From positions 1-64,000 of IMG/VR virus record IMGVR_UViG_3300022752_000024: DNA of 64,000 bases. One strand, given 5' to 3'. Source of the stretch: a virus. Made by a program: the position numbers and the translations under genes. Shown here in pieces: positions 2,886 through 15,371 of the stretch; position 1 is the stretch's first letter, and every line of letters begins with the position of its first letter. Under the pieces are notes generated by a model. The model did not search any database and was not told where the DNA came from. It saw only the letters and a program-made list of their open reading frames with translations.

Positions 2886-3551
2886 TTAATCTTTCTGATA
2901 ACGACCGTGTAGTGCAACTATTCCTTCAACCCATATATTATCAAATTCAACAACATCGTCTTTATTTAGGTACTTGTAATATGCATGTTCAATGTCAAAT
3001 CTTCCATCGCAGGATTCAAAAAAATTTTTGAATTTACTCAAATAATCATTAACATTACTATTATGCATTGACCATAATCTTGTTTCATATATTCTTAATT
3101 CTGGTGATATCCAAGATTGAACTGATTTTTTAAAAACATATTTGCCTACAGTTCTTTCGTCGTATTCATCAAAATTAAATTCTTCTGTGATGTTGTGTCT
3201 TCCCGACAATTTAAAAATTCTATTATACTCGTTCAAATTTATATTGTTGGTAATATATTCTAAAGCACCTTTGAATAATAAAAGTTCAGCATGGCTTTTA
3301 TATCCTAGATTACTCAAATCAAATATATTTTTATCATTCTGTGAATCAATAAAAACATCAACCAAATCCGCTATTTGTTTTTTGTATTCATCGGCATTAA
3401 AGACTGATATGTCATTCAATAAAATCTTGCAGTTAGGTATTTTATTTCTTACAGTCTTAATGCTATGTACAGTTTGATTGAATCTATCTTCAATTGGAAC
3501 AACACCTACTCTAGGATATATAGCCGAAGTTATTATGCAAATATTCTTCAT
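2886..3551 (-). CDS. hypothetical protein, possibly glycosyltransferase-like
   Basis: 221-aa ORF with IITSAI and IFKLSGR motifs; sugar-cluster context. Confidence 0.5.
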   Translation of the reverse strand: MKNICIITSAIYPRVGVVPIEDRFNQTVHSIKTVRNKIPNCKILLNDISVFNADEYKKQIADLVDVFIDSQNDKNIFDLSNLGYKSHAELLLFKGALEYITNNINLNEYNRIFKLSGRHNITEEFNFDEYDERTVGKYVFKKSVQSWISPELRIYETRLWSMHNSNVNDYLSKFKNFFESCDGRFDIEHAYYKYLNKDDVVEFDNIWVEGIVALHGRYQKD

Positions 3552-8466: not shown

Positions 8467-8474
8467 TATTTATA
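8467..8474 (-). promoter_or_regulatory. T4-type late promoter (TATAAATA) ahead of the nuclease and sugar island
   Basis: Exact TATAAATA on minus strand overlapping the gp41 stop. Confidence 0.65.
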
Positions 8475-9873
8475 CTTTAAAACCTGCAAATTTTTTCTTT
8501 GTGTTTTTGGGTTGTTCACGATCACCAAAAGAATTTAATGGCTTATTATCTATTTTTCCAGCATCTACGATACCATCTTGAGCAGATTGCTCAACGTCAA
8601 ACAGTCTCATTTTTGCTCTATCAATACCTAAAGCAAATCTCTTATGTGTTGTGGGATCAGAATATCTATTCTTCAACTGTTTGACCATGATCTGACCAAG
8701 TGCTTCAAGTTCTTCTGAAGTAATCAATGCAAACATCAAGTCTGCTGTAGCGGGCAAACCAAAAGACTCACTCGTATCTTCGAGTCCTGGGTCGGAACTT
8801 GTAAAACCACTTCTCGTTGTTTGTGTAGCAGATACAATTGGTACTGAGAATTCAACGGCAAGACCTCGCAGTTCTTCTGCGATGGCTTTAACATAAGTGT
8901 AGCTGTTGACATTTGCTCCGGCTTTGACTCTAGCGGAGGAACAAATATTAAGATAATCAATAAAAATAATATCAGGAAGAAAATTTTTCTTGAGATGGAG
9001 TTCATTAAGTAGAGTTCTAAAGTGAATTGTTGAGGCAGATGCGGTTGGATATTCTTTAATGATTAATTTTCCAGTAGTATTTGTTCTAACTCTCTGAACT
9101 TTTTTATCATACATCTCTTTCGATAGTAGCATCAGATCGTCAACAGTAACATTTAAGAGATTTGCATCAATTCGTTCTGCAATTTTTTCTTCTGCCATCT
9201 CTAAGGTAATATAGAGAACATTCTTTCCTTGAACCATACAACCTGCTGCAACATGACACATAAACAATGACTTACCAACACCAGTGCCTGCAAGAGCAAT
9301 ATTGAGAGTCTTGATTGGAAGTCCGCCTTTTGTGATTTTGTTGAAATACTCTAGATCAAAAGGAATGCGTTCTTCTTTTCTATGATAGAATTCGTATCGA
9401 TCATCTGCATTTTCTAGATAATCATGACCCACGTTAGTATCGAATCCAACAGCAAGAGCATCTGCAAGAATTTTAGGAATTGCACCTTTGTCTTGAGTCT
9501 TATCTTTACCATCAAGAATAGAAATTGATCCAAGGACAGCATTGTAAATAGCTCTCTCTTGACAGAATTGTTCTGTCTTGTCGATCAGCCATTGTACCTT
9601 AGTGTCCTCAGATTTATTCTGTTCGATTTCTTTTACATATTCCTCACAACGACTTAATTCATCACTCGTTAAATTTTTTCTTTCTCTAAGGGCGATGATT
9701 AAGGTTTCAAAGTTTGGTGTAGTGTTATATGAGTTAACAAAATTTGCAACTTCATCAAATAGAGTCTTCTCTGTTCTGTCCGAAAAGTATTCTGGTTTTA
9801 TGAAAGGAATAACTTTACGTAGATATTCTTCATTGTGTACCAGGTTGGTCAATATCGTCTGTTCCAGCTTCAT
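8470..9873 (-). CDS. gp41: replicative DNA helicase
   Basis: ALAGTGVGKS Walker A, YITLEMAE, IDYLNI, SATQTTR, SESFGLP. Confidence 0.97.
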   Translation of the reverse strand: MKLEQTILTNLVHNEEYLRKVIPFIKPEYFSDRTEKTLFDEVANFVNSYNTTPNFETLIIALRERKNLTSDELSRCEEYVKEIEQNKSEDTKVQWLIDKTEQFCQERAIYNAVLGSISILDGKDKTQDKGAIPKILADALAVGFDTNVGHDYLENADDRYEFYHRKEERIPFDLEYFNKITKGGLPIKTLNIALAGTGVGKSLFMCHVAAGCMVQGKNVLYITLEMAEEKIAERIDANLLNVTVDDLMLLSKEMYDKKVQRVRTNTTGKLIIKEYPTASASTIHFRTLLNELHLKKNFLPDIIFIDYLNICSSARVKAGANVNSYTYVKAIAEELRGLAVEFSVPIVSATQTTRSGFTSSDPGLEDTSESFGLPATADLMFALITSEELEALGQIMVKQLKNRYSDPTTHKRFALGIDRAKMRLFDVEQSAQDGIVDAGKIDNKPLNSFGDREQPKNTKKKFAGFKV

Positions 9874-10153
9874 CAATTATGTCCTGTTCAAGGTTGCCTG
9901 ACATGATCTGCACCAATAGATCACCAATATTATTTTTAAATTTGGTATCTTTCTCCAACTCTTTAGGTGTACTAACTTCAGATTCTAACACATCATAAGC
10001 AAAAAGTAAATACATTTCTCCGTTTTTTTCTTCAAATTTTACTTTACCATATTTGAAAACAGTATCAGCATATTCACCAGTAAGTAGTCGAACATGAACC
10101 GTTTGTTCTTCATCTTTTGGATATATGAAACAGTAGTCTATTCCTTCAGTCAT
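9830..10153 (-). CDS. gp40-like protein (head vertex assembly chaperone position)
   Basis: 107-aa acidic ORF between uvsX and gp41, as in T4. Confidence 0.55.
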   Translation of the reverse strand: MTEGIDYCFIYPKDEEQTVHVRLLTGEYADTVFKYGKVKFEEKNGEMYLLFAYDVLESEVSTPKELEKDTKFKNNIGDLLVQIMSGNLEQDIIDEAGTDDIDQPGTQ

Positions 10154-10699
10154 TTATGCTCCATTCGTTGTTTCTATGTTAAATGTTTCTTCCACAATGT
10201 CATTAGTAATAATGTCTCCATTAGAAACACTATATTTTCTTTCGACAAATTCACGGAAGGTCTTTTGTTTCAAAATAGATGTCCAAAAGTCTTTAGTATC
10301 AGTTTCTTTCAGTCTATATTTTTTATCTTCATACACACCATCTTCATCTCTCTTAGAATACCAACCATTACTAGGTTTAATTACATGACCACTTTCGAGT
10401 GCAATATCCAGTAAACCAGACCACTTACTAATGCCACCATCAAAGGATACACTAACAGGAATTTTTGATTTCTCTTTAACATATCGACTCTTTTCAACAT
10501 TAATAATAAAATTATATCCAACAACTTCAGTTCCTTCTTTTTCTTGTTGACGTCCAAGAATGAATATATTATCTGCTGAGTAATAACTGCCCGTGTTATG
10601 TGTAACTATACCGTTTTCTAGAACATAATGTTCAGCATCTTTAACTGAAATATCATATACCTTCTTTTTACCAACAGGCGTTACTGATTTAATTTTCAT
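10154..10699 (-). CDS. uvsX: UvsX C-terminal half preceded by split-intein C-fragment (35 aa)
   Basis: ATG at 10699 with AAGGA SD; MKIKSVTPVGKKKVYDISVKDAEHYVLENGIVTHN|TGSYYSADNIFILGRQQ..VEKSRYVKEK. Confidence 0.93.
   Translation of the reverse strand: MKIKSVTPVGKKKVYDISVKDAEHYVLENGIVTHNTGSYYSADNIFILGRQQEKEGTEVVGYNFIINVEKSRYVKEKSKIPVSVSFDGGISKWSGLLDIALESGHVIKPSNGWYSKRDEDGVYEDKKYRLKETDTKDFWTSILKQKTFREFVERKYSVSNGDIITNDIVEETFNIETTNGA
10595..10699 (-). mobile_element. split intein, Int-C fragment
   Basis: Block F VYDISV, terminal His-Asn, Thr at +1. Confidence 0.92.
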
Positions 10700-10700
10700 T

Positions 10701-10859
10701 TTATGGTTTCCTTTTACATTTATCATTATGCCATCTTTTTAGATTGGAGGCAGTTGTTACAATATCACAATAAGAACATTTATATTTCTGTTCAGGTTTT
10801 ATCTTTCTTGGATTCACCCAATCATCACATTTAAATCTTAGTATTCTGCTGAGTTCATA
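10701..10859 (-). pseudogene. start-less C-terminal remnant of a homing endonuclease gene
   Basis: Frame reads ..RFKCDDWVNPRKIKPEQKYKCSYCDIVTTASNLKRWHNDKCKRKP*, a CxxC..KRWHxDxC Zn-finger tail typical of phage free-standing endonucleases; in-frame TAA a few codons upstream and no start codon. Confidence 0.7.
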
Positions 10860-11116
10860 CCGGCAACTAAATCCTTAGCCTCTACCCATTCATTATCAAT
10901 TAAAAATTTATGTTTATCTGAACAAATAACCTTATATCCGTCTTCAAATTCAACTTCAAAACACTCAGGCTCACCATCGTCTAGTGTTTCTGGATTCCAT
11001 GTATATGTCACTTCTTTGTTACCGTCAAGTGTTTTAACTAAATCGCCAACTACGAAATCCTCAACAGATTTAAATGTCCCATCTGATAATTGTATTTTTG
11101 TACCAGCAACTAAACA
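10838..11116 (-). mobile_element. split intein, Int-N fragment (92 aa)
   Basis: Cys1 block A CLVAGTKIQLSDG, block B VICSDKHKFL, WVEAKDL, then stop. Confidence 0.92.
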
Positions 11117-11746
11117 TCCACCACCAACGATATCTTTAGGAAACATTCCAATTTCTTTGTATGTATGATTAACAACGATCATAGGAATATCCTTCATAGT
11201 CAAATGAGGAGTCACCATTCTAAACAATGATTTGATTTGTTTTGCTCTAGACATGTCTGCAACAGATTTCCCTTCGAGTGCATCATCAACTTCTTTCTTT
11301 GATGCTAAGTTGCCTATCGAATCAATAATGATAATTAGCTTATCATCGCGGTCCAAAGAAGTTAATTGTTGCATGACATCAAATTTCAATTGTTCGATAT
11401 CAGTAAGAGGGGTATGGAGCACACGATCGGTATCAATACCGAATGAATTGAAATAAGATTGAGGAGTCCCAAACTCAGAATCGTAAAATAGTAAAGCAGC
11501 GTCATTGTATTTGTCCAAATAAGATTTTGCCATCAAAAGTGAAAATGCAGTCTTAAAATGCTTTGATGGACCTGCCCACATAGTAAGACCAGGTGTTAAT
11601 CCACCATCAAGTTTACCAGAGAGAGCAATGTTGATGGCGGGAATAGATGTTGGGATCATGTCTTTGCTCGTAAAGAACTTAGACTTCGAAAGAATAGCTG
11701 ATTCTTTGATACTACTATTCTTTTTAATTTTATCGAGAATACTCAT
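10838..11746 (-). CDS. uvsX: UvsX (RecA-like) N-terminal half fused to split-intein N-fragment
   Basis: WAGPSKHFKT Walker A, YDSEFG, IDSIGNLASKKE; ..KDIVGGG|CLVAGTKI.. Confidence 0.95.
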   Translation of the reverse strand: MSILDKIKKNSSIKESAILSKSKFFTSKDMIPTSIPAINIALSGKLDGGLTPGLTMWAGPSKHFKTAFSLLMAKSYLDKYNDAALLFYDSEFGTPQSYFNSFGIDTDRVLHTPLTDIEQLKFDVMQQLTSLDRDDKLIIIIDSIGNLASKKEVDDALEGKSVADMSRAKQIKSLFRMVTPHLTMKDIPMIVVNHTYKEIGMFPKDIVGGGCLVAGTKIQLSDGTFKSVEDFVVGDLVKTLDGNKEVTYTWNPETLDDGEPECFEVEFEDGYKVICSDKHKFLIDNEWVEAKDLVAGMNSAEY

Positions 11747-12825
11747 TTGTCTTCCTTTTCTTTGAATGCTAGTGGTGATTCTTCATATTCATATGATTCT
11801 AATTTAGTCTTTCTATTAGGAAATCCTCTCTTACTTGCCTTGTTATTTGAAAGAGGTGGTATCGTCTCTCCCGATACTTCATCTATGACAATGAGATTTT
11901 CTTTGTGAACTTGTAGAACTTCACTAGGGCTTTCCTGAGGTCTAGGTTCTTCTTTCCGGGGAACTTCTTCATTAGTCTCAGTCTCTCGTTCCTCAAGCTT
12001 CTTTTTAGCTTCCTGTACTCTTTGATAGACCGGGTCTTCATCTTTTTCATTCTGTTTCTTTTTAGGTTCTTTTTCTTCTCTATTTGCCATAGAAATGTTA
12101 CTTGCAATCAATAGTAACACAGCCAAAGGATCAAATACAACCATGATTAGCATAATTACCAAACGAACTGCTTTGTCGATAATATCTTTATCACCAGAGC
12201 CATAAATTAATTCGGCAACATATTTAATCGGTCCGAAATCCGATTCAGCCTTGCGGAGGTCATTCGCAAGCGGCGATCTTTCTTCTGTGAGTTTACTAAT
12301 CTCTTTTTGTTGCCTCGTAATTTCTTCAGTAAGTTGTATGCGCTCTTTCTGTTGGGTTTTGCGGATTTGAACCGACCTCTCCGCTCCTTTCGCATCTTCA
12401 GTTCGTACCATGACTTGGTCCACAGCCGCATCAAGCTGTTTGAGTGCCAACTTGTTTGCATCGACATTCTCCTTTAATGTTTTTATCTTCTCATCATAAG
12501 TCAATACTTTGTCTGCAATAGGACCAATGTCAGTAGAATGTTCTAAATGCGCTTTTGACAAATAACCAAAAATGCCCATCGATGTGATGAGCATTAGAAT
12601 TGCTACCGCAGAAGTCAAATACCATTTTAATATTCCTGGTGCTGTTTTCCAGTTACGATACAACCAAGACGTAGTTACTAATTTTGCAGATTCTAATACT
12701 GAACCCATCAAAACAACAGGCCAAAATGAACCTGGAAATATTGATGCTAATCCAATCACGGAATAGTAAGCAGCCACACCAGAGAGTAATATGGCATTTA
12801 AAAATGTAAATAGTGCTGTTGTCAT
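11743..12825 (-). CDS. membrane-anchored coiled-coil protein
   Basis: Three N-terminal hydrophobic helices, a long coiled coil, a further TM segment (VFDPLAVLLL) and a charged tail. Confidence 0.75.
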   Translation of the reverse strand: MTTALFTFLNAILLSGVAAYYSVIGLASIFPGSFWPVVLMGSVLESAKLVTTSWLYRNWKTAPGILKWYLTSAVAILMLITSMGIFGYLSKAHLEHSTDIGPIADKVLTYDEKIKTLKENVDANKLALKQLDAAVDQVMVRTEDAKGAERSVQIRKTQQKERIQLTEEITRQQKEISKLTEERSPLANDLRKAESDFGPIKYVAELIYGSGDKDIIDKAVRLVIMLIMVVFDPLAVLLLIASNISMANREEKEPKKKQNEKDEDPVYQRVQEAKKKLEERETETNEEVPRKEEPRPQESPSEVLQVHKENLIVIDEVSGETIPPLSNNKASKRGFPNRKTKLESYEYEESPLAFKEKEDK

Positions 12826-15371
12826 CTGAAGAAATCCTCAAGTGTACTTCGCTTTTCTACTTCCCACCCCATACAATCTAAAACGACTTTAATAGGTTCA
12901 AGAAAAGCTTTTTCGAATTGCATATTATAATCGATATATTTTTCTAAGTCAAATTCTTTTGGGAGTTTTACTGGAAAAGATATGACAGTCTCTTTAAATG
13001 GATTTGGAGCTTTGAGATATGAAAACTTGATTTTCTCACCTTCATTAATTAATGGATATTTCTTATCAAGATTCATTCGTTTGAGTGCATTATTATATAT
13101 GATTGCACCTTTAACATGAATAGGTGTTCCTTTGGAATATAAAGTAACTGAATTGGAATATTTGTTAATGCCACGAATTCCTCGAGGAAATGATATATCT
13201 TCTGCTGGTAGATTTATAAATTCTGATCGAAAATCACTGATGAATTTTTGTATATCTTCTTCAGTACCATGCATCATTAGTTTAATTGTTTGTTTCATCT
13301 TCTCACGAATCGGTGCTGGTGTAGAAGATTTTACCATCTCAAGACCCATCACTTTCAGATGAGGCTCTGCATATTGAACACCTTCATTATTATATACATT
13401 CATGATGTAACGCTTCTTTGCAGTCCAGATACCTTTATCTGCAAGAGCTTCACGTTTCATTTCCATCTTTTGTTCATATGCATGGACATAATCAGTAAGT
13501 GTCTGATAGCTTTGATCAATATATGGTTGAATTTTATCTTCACATACCTTATCCATAAACGAGATAATTTTATCAGTTCGCTCTCCTGATTGAAAGACTT
13601 TGTTCACCAAGCCACCAAGTTTAAGATAAATTGAATCTGTATCTGACGCAATAACATAATCTTCATTTTCTGTTTTAAGTAATTTGTTCAAATAATCATT
13701 TAGTGCATTTTCAATCCAACGAATCGATAGCTGACCAGACATCGTGACTGCTAGAGCAATACGCAAATCAAAGAAACGAAAGAATTCATTACCCATCGCA
13801 CCATATGCAGAGTTCAAACAAACTTTTTTTGCTAGTTGAAGATTATTATATCGTGCAATACGTTTTTCTATCACAAATCTTTTTGCTGAATCGGTTTCTT
13901 TCTCTAAGTTTTGTTTAGCTTCCAGCGATTTCTTTTTATACACCTTACGATCTTCATACATTACTTTCATGAGTTTAGGAAGAAAACCTTGTTTATTTGT
14001 ATAGAAGAATTGTCCGTTAGGGGTAACTGTAACATTAGTGAGTCTTGAAGTATCTACCTGCTGCATTAATAGAGAATCAACAGAAACTCTCTGTGAAAGA
14101 ACTTCATGCATTTCATCTGTATAGTCATCTGAATTTACCAATGTTTCGGGAGAAAGATTGTATTGCATGATAAGGTGTGGGTATAGACTGTTCAAGTCAA
14201 ATGATGCTACCCAATCATGTTTACCTACTTGCGGTTCTTTCACATAAGCACCTTCAAACGCTTGAGACTTATCTTTTCGTTCTGTAGGTGGAATAATTAT
14301 ATTGTCTTTGCGTAAGAAGTTGTATATGATGATATCCCACATACGAACTTGTGTAAACACATCATCATAATTGGTTTTACTATCATATGCTAGAGTCAGA
14401 GCCAATTCAATCAACTTCAGCTTATCTTCTAATTCTTCAATTAGTTGAACGTCAACAATATTATATTCAATAAATTTTTGAAAATTGAGTTTATATAATT
14501 GATGCAGAGAATTATATTCATCGTAAGATAGTTTTTGTTTGTCTAGTTCTACATTGGCAATACTATCTAACTTATATGATTCTTGTGATGCACCACCAGG
14601 AGCATACTTACGATACAGTTCAATATAATCAAGCATAGACACGCCAAATATTTCATAGACGGTATGATCTTTAGCCATCAATACTGCTCTGCGTTCGGCA
14701 ATATAATTCCAAGGTGAAAGTGATTTTGCGTCATCCTCAGAAAGGATACGTTTAAAACGATTGATTAGATATGGGAAGTCAAAGAACTTGATATTCCAAC
14801 CAGTAACGATATCTGGACAATTATCTTTCCAGTCTTTTAAAAATCGCTTACATAACGTCCATTCATCTTTGCATTTGATGTATGTTACAGAATTATCGGT
14901 GTTTTGAAAATCACCACAACCATATACTGTTGTTCCGCCATTTAATTGACGAACAGCGATTGCAGTAATTGGCTCACTAGCAATTGCTGGATCAGGAAAG
15001 CCATTCTCCGAACCAACTTCAATATCAATAATTACAATCGATAGCTGAGATTGATCCCATTCGACTTCGTTTGGATGTTGGTCTGCAATAAAATTGTATT
15101 CAAATCGAGTATTTCCGTAAATCTTTTTATTTGAAATGTCTTGATTTCGTTTTACATAGTCTTTTGCATCACGAATAGAATCAAATTTAAATTCATGAAG
15201 ATTTTCTCCATTTAGTGTTTTAAATGGAGATTCTTTACGAACTATTTCATATAAAGTTGGTTGATACTCAAAACGATCTTTTATTCGTTTACCATTAACT
15301 ACACCCCGATAGAGAATGTAGTTACCAAAACACTGGACGTTCGTATAGAAGTTCGTATAGAAGTTTGACAT
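12822..15371 (-). CDS. gp43: family B DNA polymerase
   Basis: DIEV exonuclease motif, SFDLNSLYPH, KVCLNSAYG, ASDTDS, KKRY. Confidence 0.98.
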   Translation of the reverse strand: MSNFYTNFYTNVQCFGNYILYRGVVNGKRIKDRFEYQPTLYEIVRKESPFKTLNGENLHEFKFDSIRDAKDYVKRNQDISNKKIYGNTRFEYNFIADQHPNEVEWDQSQLSIVIIDIEVGSENGFPDPAIASEPITAIAVRQLNGGTTVYGCGDFQNTDNSVTYIKCKDEWTLCKRFLKDWKDNCPDIVTGWNIKFFDFPYLINRFKRILSEDDAKSLSPWNYIAERRAVLMAKDHTVYEIFGVSMLDYIELYRKYAPGGASQESYKLDSIANVELDKQKLSYDEYNSLHQLYKLNFQKFIEYNIVDVQLIEELEDKLKLIELALTLAYDSKTNYDDVFTQVRMWDIIIYNFLRKDNIIIPPTERKDKSQAFEGAYVKEPQVGKHDWVASFDLNSLYPHLIMQYNLSPETLVNSDDYTDEMHEVLSQRVSVDSLLMQQVDTSRLTNVTVTPNGQFFYTNKQGFLPKLMKVMYEDRKVYKKKSLEAKQNLEKETDSAKRFVIEKRIARYNNLQLAKKVCLNSAYGAMGNEFFRFFDLRIALAVTMSGQLSIRWIENALNDYLNKLLKTENEDYVIASDTDSIYLKLGGLVNKVFQSGERTDKIISFMDKVCEDKIQPYIDQSYQTLTDYVHAYEQKMEMKREALADKGIWTAKKRYIMNVYNNEGVQYAEPHLKVMGLEMVKSSTPAPIREKMKQTIKLMMHGTEEDIQKFISDFRSEFINLPAEDISFPRGIRGINKYSNSVTLYSKGTPIHVKGAIIYNNALKRMNLDKKYPLINEGEKIKFSYLKAPNPFKETVISFPVKLPKEFDLEKYIDYNMQFEKAFLEPIKVVLDCMGWEVEKRSTLEDFFR

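Follow-up and report, generated by a model that had tools for sequence, protein, structure and literature searches.

A uvsX recombinase gene divided between the halves of a predicted split intein, with the remnant of a homing endonuclease gene in between

In T4-like phages, UvsX serves as the core recombinase, and it is also used as a reagent for recombinase polymerase amplification. We analyzed the uvsX locus in the IMG/VR virus record IMGVR_UViG_3300022752_000024. The window, by which we mean the whole 64,000-nucleotide stretch that was analyzed, corresponds to positions 1–64,000 of this record, and the full record is 142,881 bases long and 86% complete. The uvsX region was read on both strands, and the lengths and net charges of its parts were counted by script. 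At this locus, UvsX is encoded by two genes on the minus strand, each of which also carries one half of a predicted intein, and the short spacer between them contains the 3' end of a homing endonuclease gene. An earlier note on this DNA, made from the sequence alone, had proposed that the recombinase is restored by protein trans-splicing.

Anatomy of the uvsX locus

Gene 1 (10838–11746, minus strand, as are all features of the locus) encodes 302 amino acids (aa). The first 210 aa represent the UvsX N-extein (11117–11746), a RecA-like ATPase core that ends in KDIVGGG. This segment matches the Pfam RecA family (E = 9.9e-8) and T4 UvsX (PDB 3io5, E = 1.2e-62), the latter alignment ending at chain position 186. 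The remaining 92 aa (residues 211–302, positions 10841–11116) constitute the putative N-intein (IntN), which starts with Cys1 in the motif CLVAGT (Cys211 of gene 1), contains the block B motif SDKHKF and has a net charge of -13. A TAA stop codon (10838–10840) closes gene 1 right after IntN (..GMNSAEY*), and the same terminus, ..SAEY*, is found in the IntN of the related alleles L012 and L088.

Gene 2 encodes 181 aa, with an ATG at 10697–10699 and a stop codon at 10154–10156. A Shine-Dalgarno sequence of its own, AAGGA (10709–10713), was read directly from the sequence nine bases 5' of the ATG. The putative C-intein (IntC, 10595–10699) consists of 35 aa, MKIKSVTPVGKKK..IVTHN, with a penultimate His and a terminal Asn, and has a net charge of +2 overall and +5 across the first 13 residues. 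The UvsX C-extein (10154–10594; 146 aa plus the stop) starts at Thr+1 with TGSYYSADNIF. It matches Pfam T4_UVSX_C (E = 2.1e-17) as well as T4 UvsX (E = 4.5e-38), the alignment starting at chain position 187 of 3io5. The composition and coordinates of both genes, including the oppositely charged intein halves, thereby agree with the description in the earlier note.

Joining the exteins (210 + 146 aa) yields a virtual splice product of 356 aa with the junction GGG|TGSYYSAD, again as had been proposed. The two parts abut at positions 186/187 of the T4 structure. The junction is gap-free in alignments with the contiguous UvsX proteins of Stenotrophomonas phage DLP_6, phage C48C1 and Caulobacter phage Cr30, and the 22 residues flanking it are identical in intein-less relatives. 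A one-base sequencing error is excluded as the source of the division, since the halves are 138 nt apart, stops occur in all frames and the spacer is homologous to the tail of an endonuclease gene. No second uvsX and no second intein were found in the 142,881-base record.

The spacer (10701–10837; 138 nt between the halves) contains what is left of the 3' end of an HNH/NUMOD3 homing endonuclease gene. Its third-frame reading is ..DDWVNPRKIKPEQKYKCSYCDIVTTASNLKRWHNDKCKRKP*, with the stop codon at 10701–10703, one base ahead of the IntC ATG. In alleles L012, L017 and L027, a gene of 231–234 aa with an HNH motif, a NUMOD3 repeat and the same C-terminal tail as the remnant is located between the halves, and the L012-type gene matches phrog_655, 'homing endonuclease' (E = 1.4e-49). 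Searching the genome of the window with the L012 endonuclease (231 aa) gave a match only for residues 186–230, at 10704–10838, with 76% identity (E = 1.4e-20). The remnant comprises approximately 45 codons of a zinc-finger tail, with weak matches to zinc-finger families in Pfam, and neither an ATG nor an HNH or other catalytic domain was found in the spacer. The final codons of the remnant are overlapped by the Shine-Dalgarno sequence of gene 2. An alignment of the DNA with L012 showed that approximately 595 nt are absent from the window, with AGATT at both borders. Such a pattern could have resulted from a deletion between short repeats, although L012 itself would not be the direct ancestor.

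The ratio of nonsynonymous to synonymous substitution rates (dN/dS) for the remnant against intact endonuclease tails was 0.05–0.09, a value that blends change before and after the deletion. We considered whether the remnant could be a gene in its own right, but it offers only a GTG start, no clear ribosome site was seen by eye and the equivalent stretch in L098 is frameshifted. The remnant was therefore treated as a decaying fragment, and the frameshift in L098 also argues against a functional remnant peptide.

L015 and L018 (3858–4001), L098 (3279–3371) and the window (10701–10837) have kept almost the same part of the 3' end of the endonuclease gene, with differing left borders. In three endonuclease-less alleles the shared stretch begins just ahead of the motif W-x-N-P. 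One of these alleles, L015, has Ser at position +1 and an intein that is only about 60% identical. That the right-hand endpoint recurs may be due to selection for signals used by the C-half gene, and the zinc-finger remnant may have been retained for these expression signals.

Sequence and fold evidence for a split intein

The earlier identification of a split intein is supported by profile searches, solved inteins, conserved residues and a predicted fold. IntC matched positions 122–155 of the 155-position Pfam family Intein_splicing (PF14890; E = 8.6e-5), and the tail of gene 1 gave weak matches to Hint and Intein_splicing. With the halves read through the spacer, the match extended over profile positions 48–155 and reached 37.2 bits, above the gathering cut-off of 35.8 bits. 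Both halves also aligned in register with inteins of known structure, IntN with gp41-1 (6qaz, E = 0.002) and IntC with Mxe GyrA and with the IntC of Npu DnaE up to the terminal Asn.

All positions predicted to be catalytic in a class-1 intein are present in the window intein. In an alignment of 11 alleles, Cys1, Ser66 and His69 of IntN were invariant. Block B reads S-D-K-H with an invariant His, and Ser replaces Thr in all 11 aligned alleles and also in the census described below, for which the search pattern admitted either Ser or Thr at this position. The replacement thus appears to be a conservative variant. Residues were scored in 78 census alleles, 75 of which end in HN, and the +1 residue was Thr in 73 alleles and Ser in another 4. 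The pairing of Cys1 with Thr+1, which the earlier note had singled out, is thus present but not special to this locus. Thr+1 is usual in the UvsX intein family, because the intein directly precedes the Thr of the GGTG motif, which is conserved, and we regard it as a property of the insertion site rather than of the window allele.

The split point corresponds in contiguous alleles to the loop ..SVEY|EEI|MKIKS, the endonuclease-insertion loop, and the start Met of IntC (MKIKS) is common to all homologues. The fold was modelled on a contiguous allele, L106, with 69% identity to the window in IntN and 83% in IntC. The AlphaFold2 model (pLDDT 87.7, pTM 0.81) displayed the HINT fold. Its top matches in Foldseek were all inteins, with gp41-1 in first place (E = 2.8e-9, TM 0.72/0.83) and the DnaB, Prp8, DnaE and Mtu RecA inteins next; the gp41-1, DnaB, DnaE and Mtu RecA matches had E values from 1e-9 to 1e-6.

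The intein halves showed dN/dS values of 0.04–0.2, and the exteins and intein halves together values of 0.03–0.25; synonymous sites were close to saturation. Purifying selection acts on the intein halves much as it does on the exteins.

Distribution and forms of the UvsX intein

A translated search of GenBank phages identified 40 records that match the full N half (extein plus IntN) and that also hold the C half. Three cultured Straboviridae were inspected, namely Escherichia phage HY03, Yersinia phage TG1 and Shewanella phage Thanatos-1. They have the same GG|TG insertion site and the same arrangement of Cys1 ... His-Asn|Thr as the window, with IntN 62–64% and IntC 77–86% identical. Their spacers of 0.8–1.0 kb contain an intact GIY-YIG/NUMOD3-type endonuclease gene of 0.6–0.7 kb, whereas the window spacer of 138 nt contains an HNH-type remnant. 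Proteus phage PM2 and Salmonella phage pSe_SNUABM_01 are further carriers of the same split.

In the cultured Straboviridae, the halves are annotated as two recombination proteins, one RecA-like or 'DNA repair protein' and the other 'recombinase', and the latter two are the names given in RefSeq. The split halves also form two separate PHROG families, phrog_8337 and phrog_18112. Annotation pipelines hide the intein in this manner, as each half is named as a separate protein in a family of its own.

At least 224 stretches in IMG/VR encode a relative of the window IntN. We classified the architecture of the best 80 of these 224 loci together with the window (81 in total). The largest class, 41 loci, is split by an endonuclease-sized spacer (>650 nt). 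Shorter spacers were observed in 4 loci (321–650 nt), 14 loci including the window (61–320 nt) and 11 loci (60 nt or less), while a contiguous mini-intein of 130–160 aa was found in 8 loci. The architecture of the remaining 3 loci was not classifiable. On a tree of the intein halves, the endonuclease must have been gained or lost at least 14 times, a rough figure given that most branches are poorly supported. The window locus is thus one member of a large and already sequenced family rather than a singular case.

IMG/VR includes alleles that are 85–88% identical to the window in IntN, and a metagenome scan revealed no IntN allele above 88% identity. Nor was near-identical DNA found in a nucleotide search of GenBank phages with the window locus, and the exact deletion junction was found in no other IMG/VR contig. 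Most of the closest uvsX relatives of the window are intein-less (N-extein 89–95% identical), including environmental UvsX sequences with 93–95% identity in the N-extein. The sporadic presence of the intein among close uvsX relatives fits a mobile element. A possible co-conversion tract was also considered: identity to the intein-bearing L088 and L012 increases from approximately 70% to 82–86% near the junction, a region that is more conserved in general anyway.

The family is present in the databases, but as far as we found it has not been described: we searched the literature on uvsX inteins, split inteins, atypically split inteins and homing endonucleases that interrupt uvsX, and found no description of a UvsX intein. 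A uvsX origin of the VidaL intein was considered but dropped, as it could not be confirmed and the VidaL structure (6vgv) is only a distant fold match with 15% identity.

The contiguous alleles identified were L106–L108, L143, L146 and L163–L166. The cluster L106–L116 contains intein DNA that is 97–100% identical (90% for the IntC of L109) in four architectures: contiguous, with a 36-nt spacer, with a 52-nt spacer and with a complete HNH endonuclease gene. Between backgrounds, identity in the flanking uvsX DNA amounts to no more than 64–80%, which suggests that the intein has recently spread between diverged phages. Inside a single background, exteins can be shared across architectures: in one, those of L108 (contiguous) and L116 (endonuclease-bearing) are 100% identical, and in another, those of L106, L107 (both contiguous) and L112–L114 (52-nt spacer) are 92–100% identical. 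The L106 intein, at about 3001–3420, is a contiguous mini-intein of 140 aa.

The junctions in this cluster can be arranged as a series from the full endonuclease gene through a 52-nt scar and a 36-nt scar to the contiguous form. In the contiguous junction, ..GAATAC runs straight into GAGGAAATT-ATG, and the GAGGAAATT serving as ribosome site in the split form is thereby read as Glu-Glu-Ile. These data suggest two alternative histories. The contiguous form may be a split intein that was re-fused by deletion, or an endonuclease cassette may have invaded a contiguous intein that already offered a ribosome site and a Met. Tentatively, and with rather less than even confidence, we raise the possibility that the UvsX intein family represents a natural case of a single intein alternating between cis and trans forms. 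If so, the window would be a partly decayed intermediate on this path. To our knowledge, reversion of a split intein to the contiguous state has not been described.

Trans-splicing, its alternatives and related systems

We infer that uvsX in the window is very probably a fractured gene, in which a class-1 mini-intein inserted before the Thr of the GGTG motif has been split into a 92-aa acidic half and a 35-aa basic half, and the recombinase is restored by trans-splicing. The two genes are probably co-transcribed, since they are located on one strand with no terminator and no convincing promoter between them, each with its own start signals. The precursors of 302 and 181 aa would then pair through their intein halves, driven by the acidic IntN and the basic N-terminus of IntC, as in DnaE and in the inteins of Dassa et al. 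(PMC2677866). From established intein chemistry and the conserved residues, we propose that the reassembled HINT domain would carry out an N-S acyl shift at Cys1, a trans-esterification to Thr+1, cyclization of Asn35 and an O-N shift. The intein would be released, together with a 356-aa UvsX of about 40 kDa with the native sequence ..IVGGG-TGSYYSAD.., and the tryptic peptide predicted across the spliced junction is DIVGGGTGSYYSADNIFILGR. As for the order of events, the split probably arose once a free-standing HNH/NUMOD3 homing endonuclease gene lay between the halves. A later loss of approximately 600 nt would have removed the start and the catalytic domain of this gene, leaving the 45-codon tail that keeps the ribosome site of gene 2.

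Several observations weigh against this interpretation. Taken singly, each intein half scores below the Pfam gathering cut-off, with 15.9 bits for IntN and 22.8 bits for IntC. Block B carries Ser where most inteins carry Thr, even if Ser is invariant in the UvsX intein family. The modelled HINT fold is that of the contiguous relative L106 and not of the two chains in the window. The spacer is known from a metagenome assembly, and splicing in the family has been deduced from sequence.

This last point leaves room for a non-splicing clasp, by which the intein halves would join the UvsX fragments non-covalently, without forming a peptide bond. Assembly of this type has been documented for the NrdA of Aeromonas phage Aeh1, which is likewise encoded by a T4-like phage gene that an endonuclease has split (PMC3045599). 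However, residues that are needed for the chemistry only, i.e. Cys1, the block B His, the terminal His-Asn and Thr+1, have been kept across about 78 alleles under purifying selection. Identical intein sequences also occur as contiguous inteins, which must splice in cis because UvsX would not otherwise be freed. We therefore consider a clasp improbable.

A second alternative is that the mobile element has inactivated uvsX and that the phage uses host RecA or another recombinase. The record is 86% complete, so a second recombinase gene could be located outside of it. Yet, neither open reading frame (ORF) is disrupted and each has start signals of its own, the low dN/dS values of exteins and intein halves given above argue against a dead gene, no other uvsX match was found in the record and many viable cultured phages keep the same arrangement, all of which makes this explanation highly unlikely. 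Equally little credence can be given to the idea that a contiguous mini-intein was misassembled or wrongly sequenced, for although contiguous alleles exist and the window derives from a metagenome, the halves are parted by 138 nt with homology to an endonuclease gene tail rather than by a frameshift, and other samples yielded independent contigs with comparable short-spacer forms.

Fractured genes with split inteins have been described from ocean metagenomes, including gp41-1 to gp41-9, NrdA, NrdJ-1, IMPDH-1 and others, with intein halves of 88–105 and 33–54 aa (Dassa et al. 2009, PMC2677866). The window locus resembles these in that N-extein plus IntN, a spacer and IntC plus C-extein follow one another on one strand in a T4-like replication or recombination gene. 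The halves are likewise oppositely charged, and their sizes of 92 and 35 aa are within the canonical range. The gp41-1 intein is the best match in both sequence and fold, yet only about 24% identical. The window differs from the Dassa loci in its host gene, uvsX, which is mentioned in that study only as a neighbouring ORF (PMC2677866), and in having Thr at +1. The endonuclease genes differ as well: the Dassa loci have GIY-YIG or Vsr-like endonucleases, whereas the closest alleles of the window have an HNH/NUMOD3 endonuclease, of which the window keeps the 45-codon remnant. A free-standing endonuclease gene between the halves, which is one criterion for a fractured gene, was not found in the window. 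The gp41-7 locus is likewise without an endonuclease gene (PMC2677866). Because the spacer is the 3' remnant of such a gene, we interpret the uvsX locus as a probable fractured gene of the Dassa type minus its endonuclease. The reading of the spacer as an endonuclease remnant, and of the locus as an endonuclease-less fractured gene, is what the sequence analysis adds here.

The DnaE inteins of Ssp and Npu are, like the window intein, naturally split class-1 inteins with an acidic IntN and a basic IntC of 35–36 aa. Their halves are far apart in the genome and followed by Cys+1, whereas those in the window are adjacent, have Thr+1 and are visibly the result of endonuclease invasion. The nrdA gene of phage Aeh1 resembles uvsX in the window in that a mobile endonuclease has divided an essential gene of a T4-like phage into halves that need to come together again. 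No intein or splicing is reportedly involved in that case, unlike in the window, where the full set of splicing residues is present. The assembly of Aeh1 NrdA has been attributed to protein interaction domains of mobile-element origin (PMC3045599).

A phage that makes UvsX by trans-splicing only would, if true, illustrate how extensively an essential gene can be broken up by selfish elements and still survive. At this one insertion site, all stages in the life cycle of a fractured gene are represented: contiguous, endonuclease-bearing split, decaying endonuclease and bare split. The window documents the stage of decay, although by itself it adds one allele, which is a modest gain. The family is also a source of uncharacterized Thr+1 split inteins, and since members are found in easily grown coliphages, splicing is open to study in vivo. 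The suggestion in the earlier note that the window intein could be used as an orthogonal ligation tool is plausible from its sequence, because at only about 24% identity to gp41-1 it may be orthogonal to current tools.

Some minor features of the locus concern its expression. No terminator-like site was found between gene 1 and gene 2, and promoter searches between the halves gave only weak consensus matches, no more frequent than in shuffled sequence. The sequence TATAAATG is located at 10777–10784 (minus strand), inside the K-Y-K-C codons of the remnant and approximately 78 nt upstream of the IntC ATG. It matches 7 of the 8 bases of the T4 late-promoter consensus. The residues K-Y-K-C close the endonuclease tails of L012, L023 and L027, and the DNA of L012 likewise reads TATAAATG. 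An upstream in-frame ATG at 10726, which would add 9 aa (MINVKGNHK) to IntC, was rejected as the start of gene 2, because homologues and contiguous alleles have Met at MKIKS and the AAGGA serves 10699. This ATG comes from the endonuclease tail in another frame, recurs in L098 (MKNVKGKIM..) and is probably unused.

The neighbouring genes are also on the minus strand. Between uvsX and the DNA polymerase gene (12822–15371), positions 11743–12825 encode a 360-aa predicted membrane and coiled-coil protein, for which no convincing family match was found; its ORF overlaps uvsX and the DNA polymerase gene by 4 bases each. On the other side, between the 3' part of uvsX and a gp41-like helicase gene (8470–9876), an acidic ORF of 107 aa (9830–10153), whose sole match is phrog_3998 of no assigned function, occupies the position of T4 gp40.

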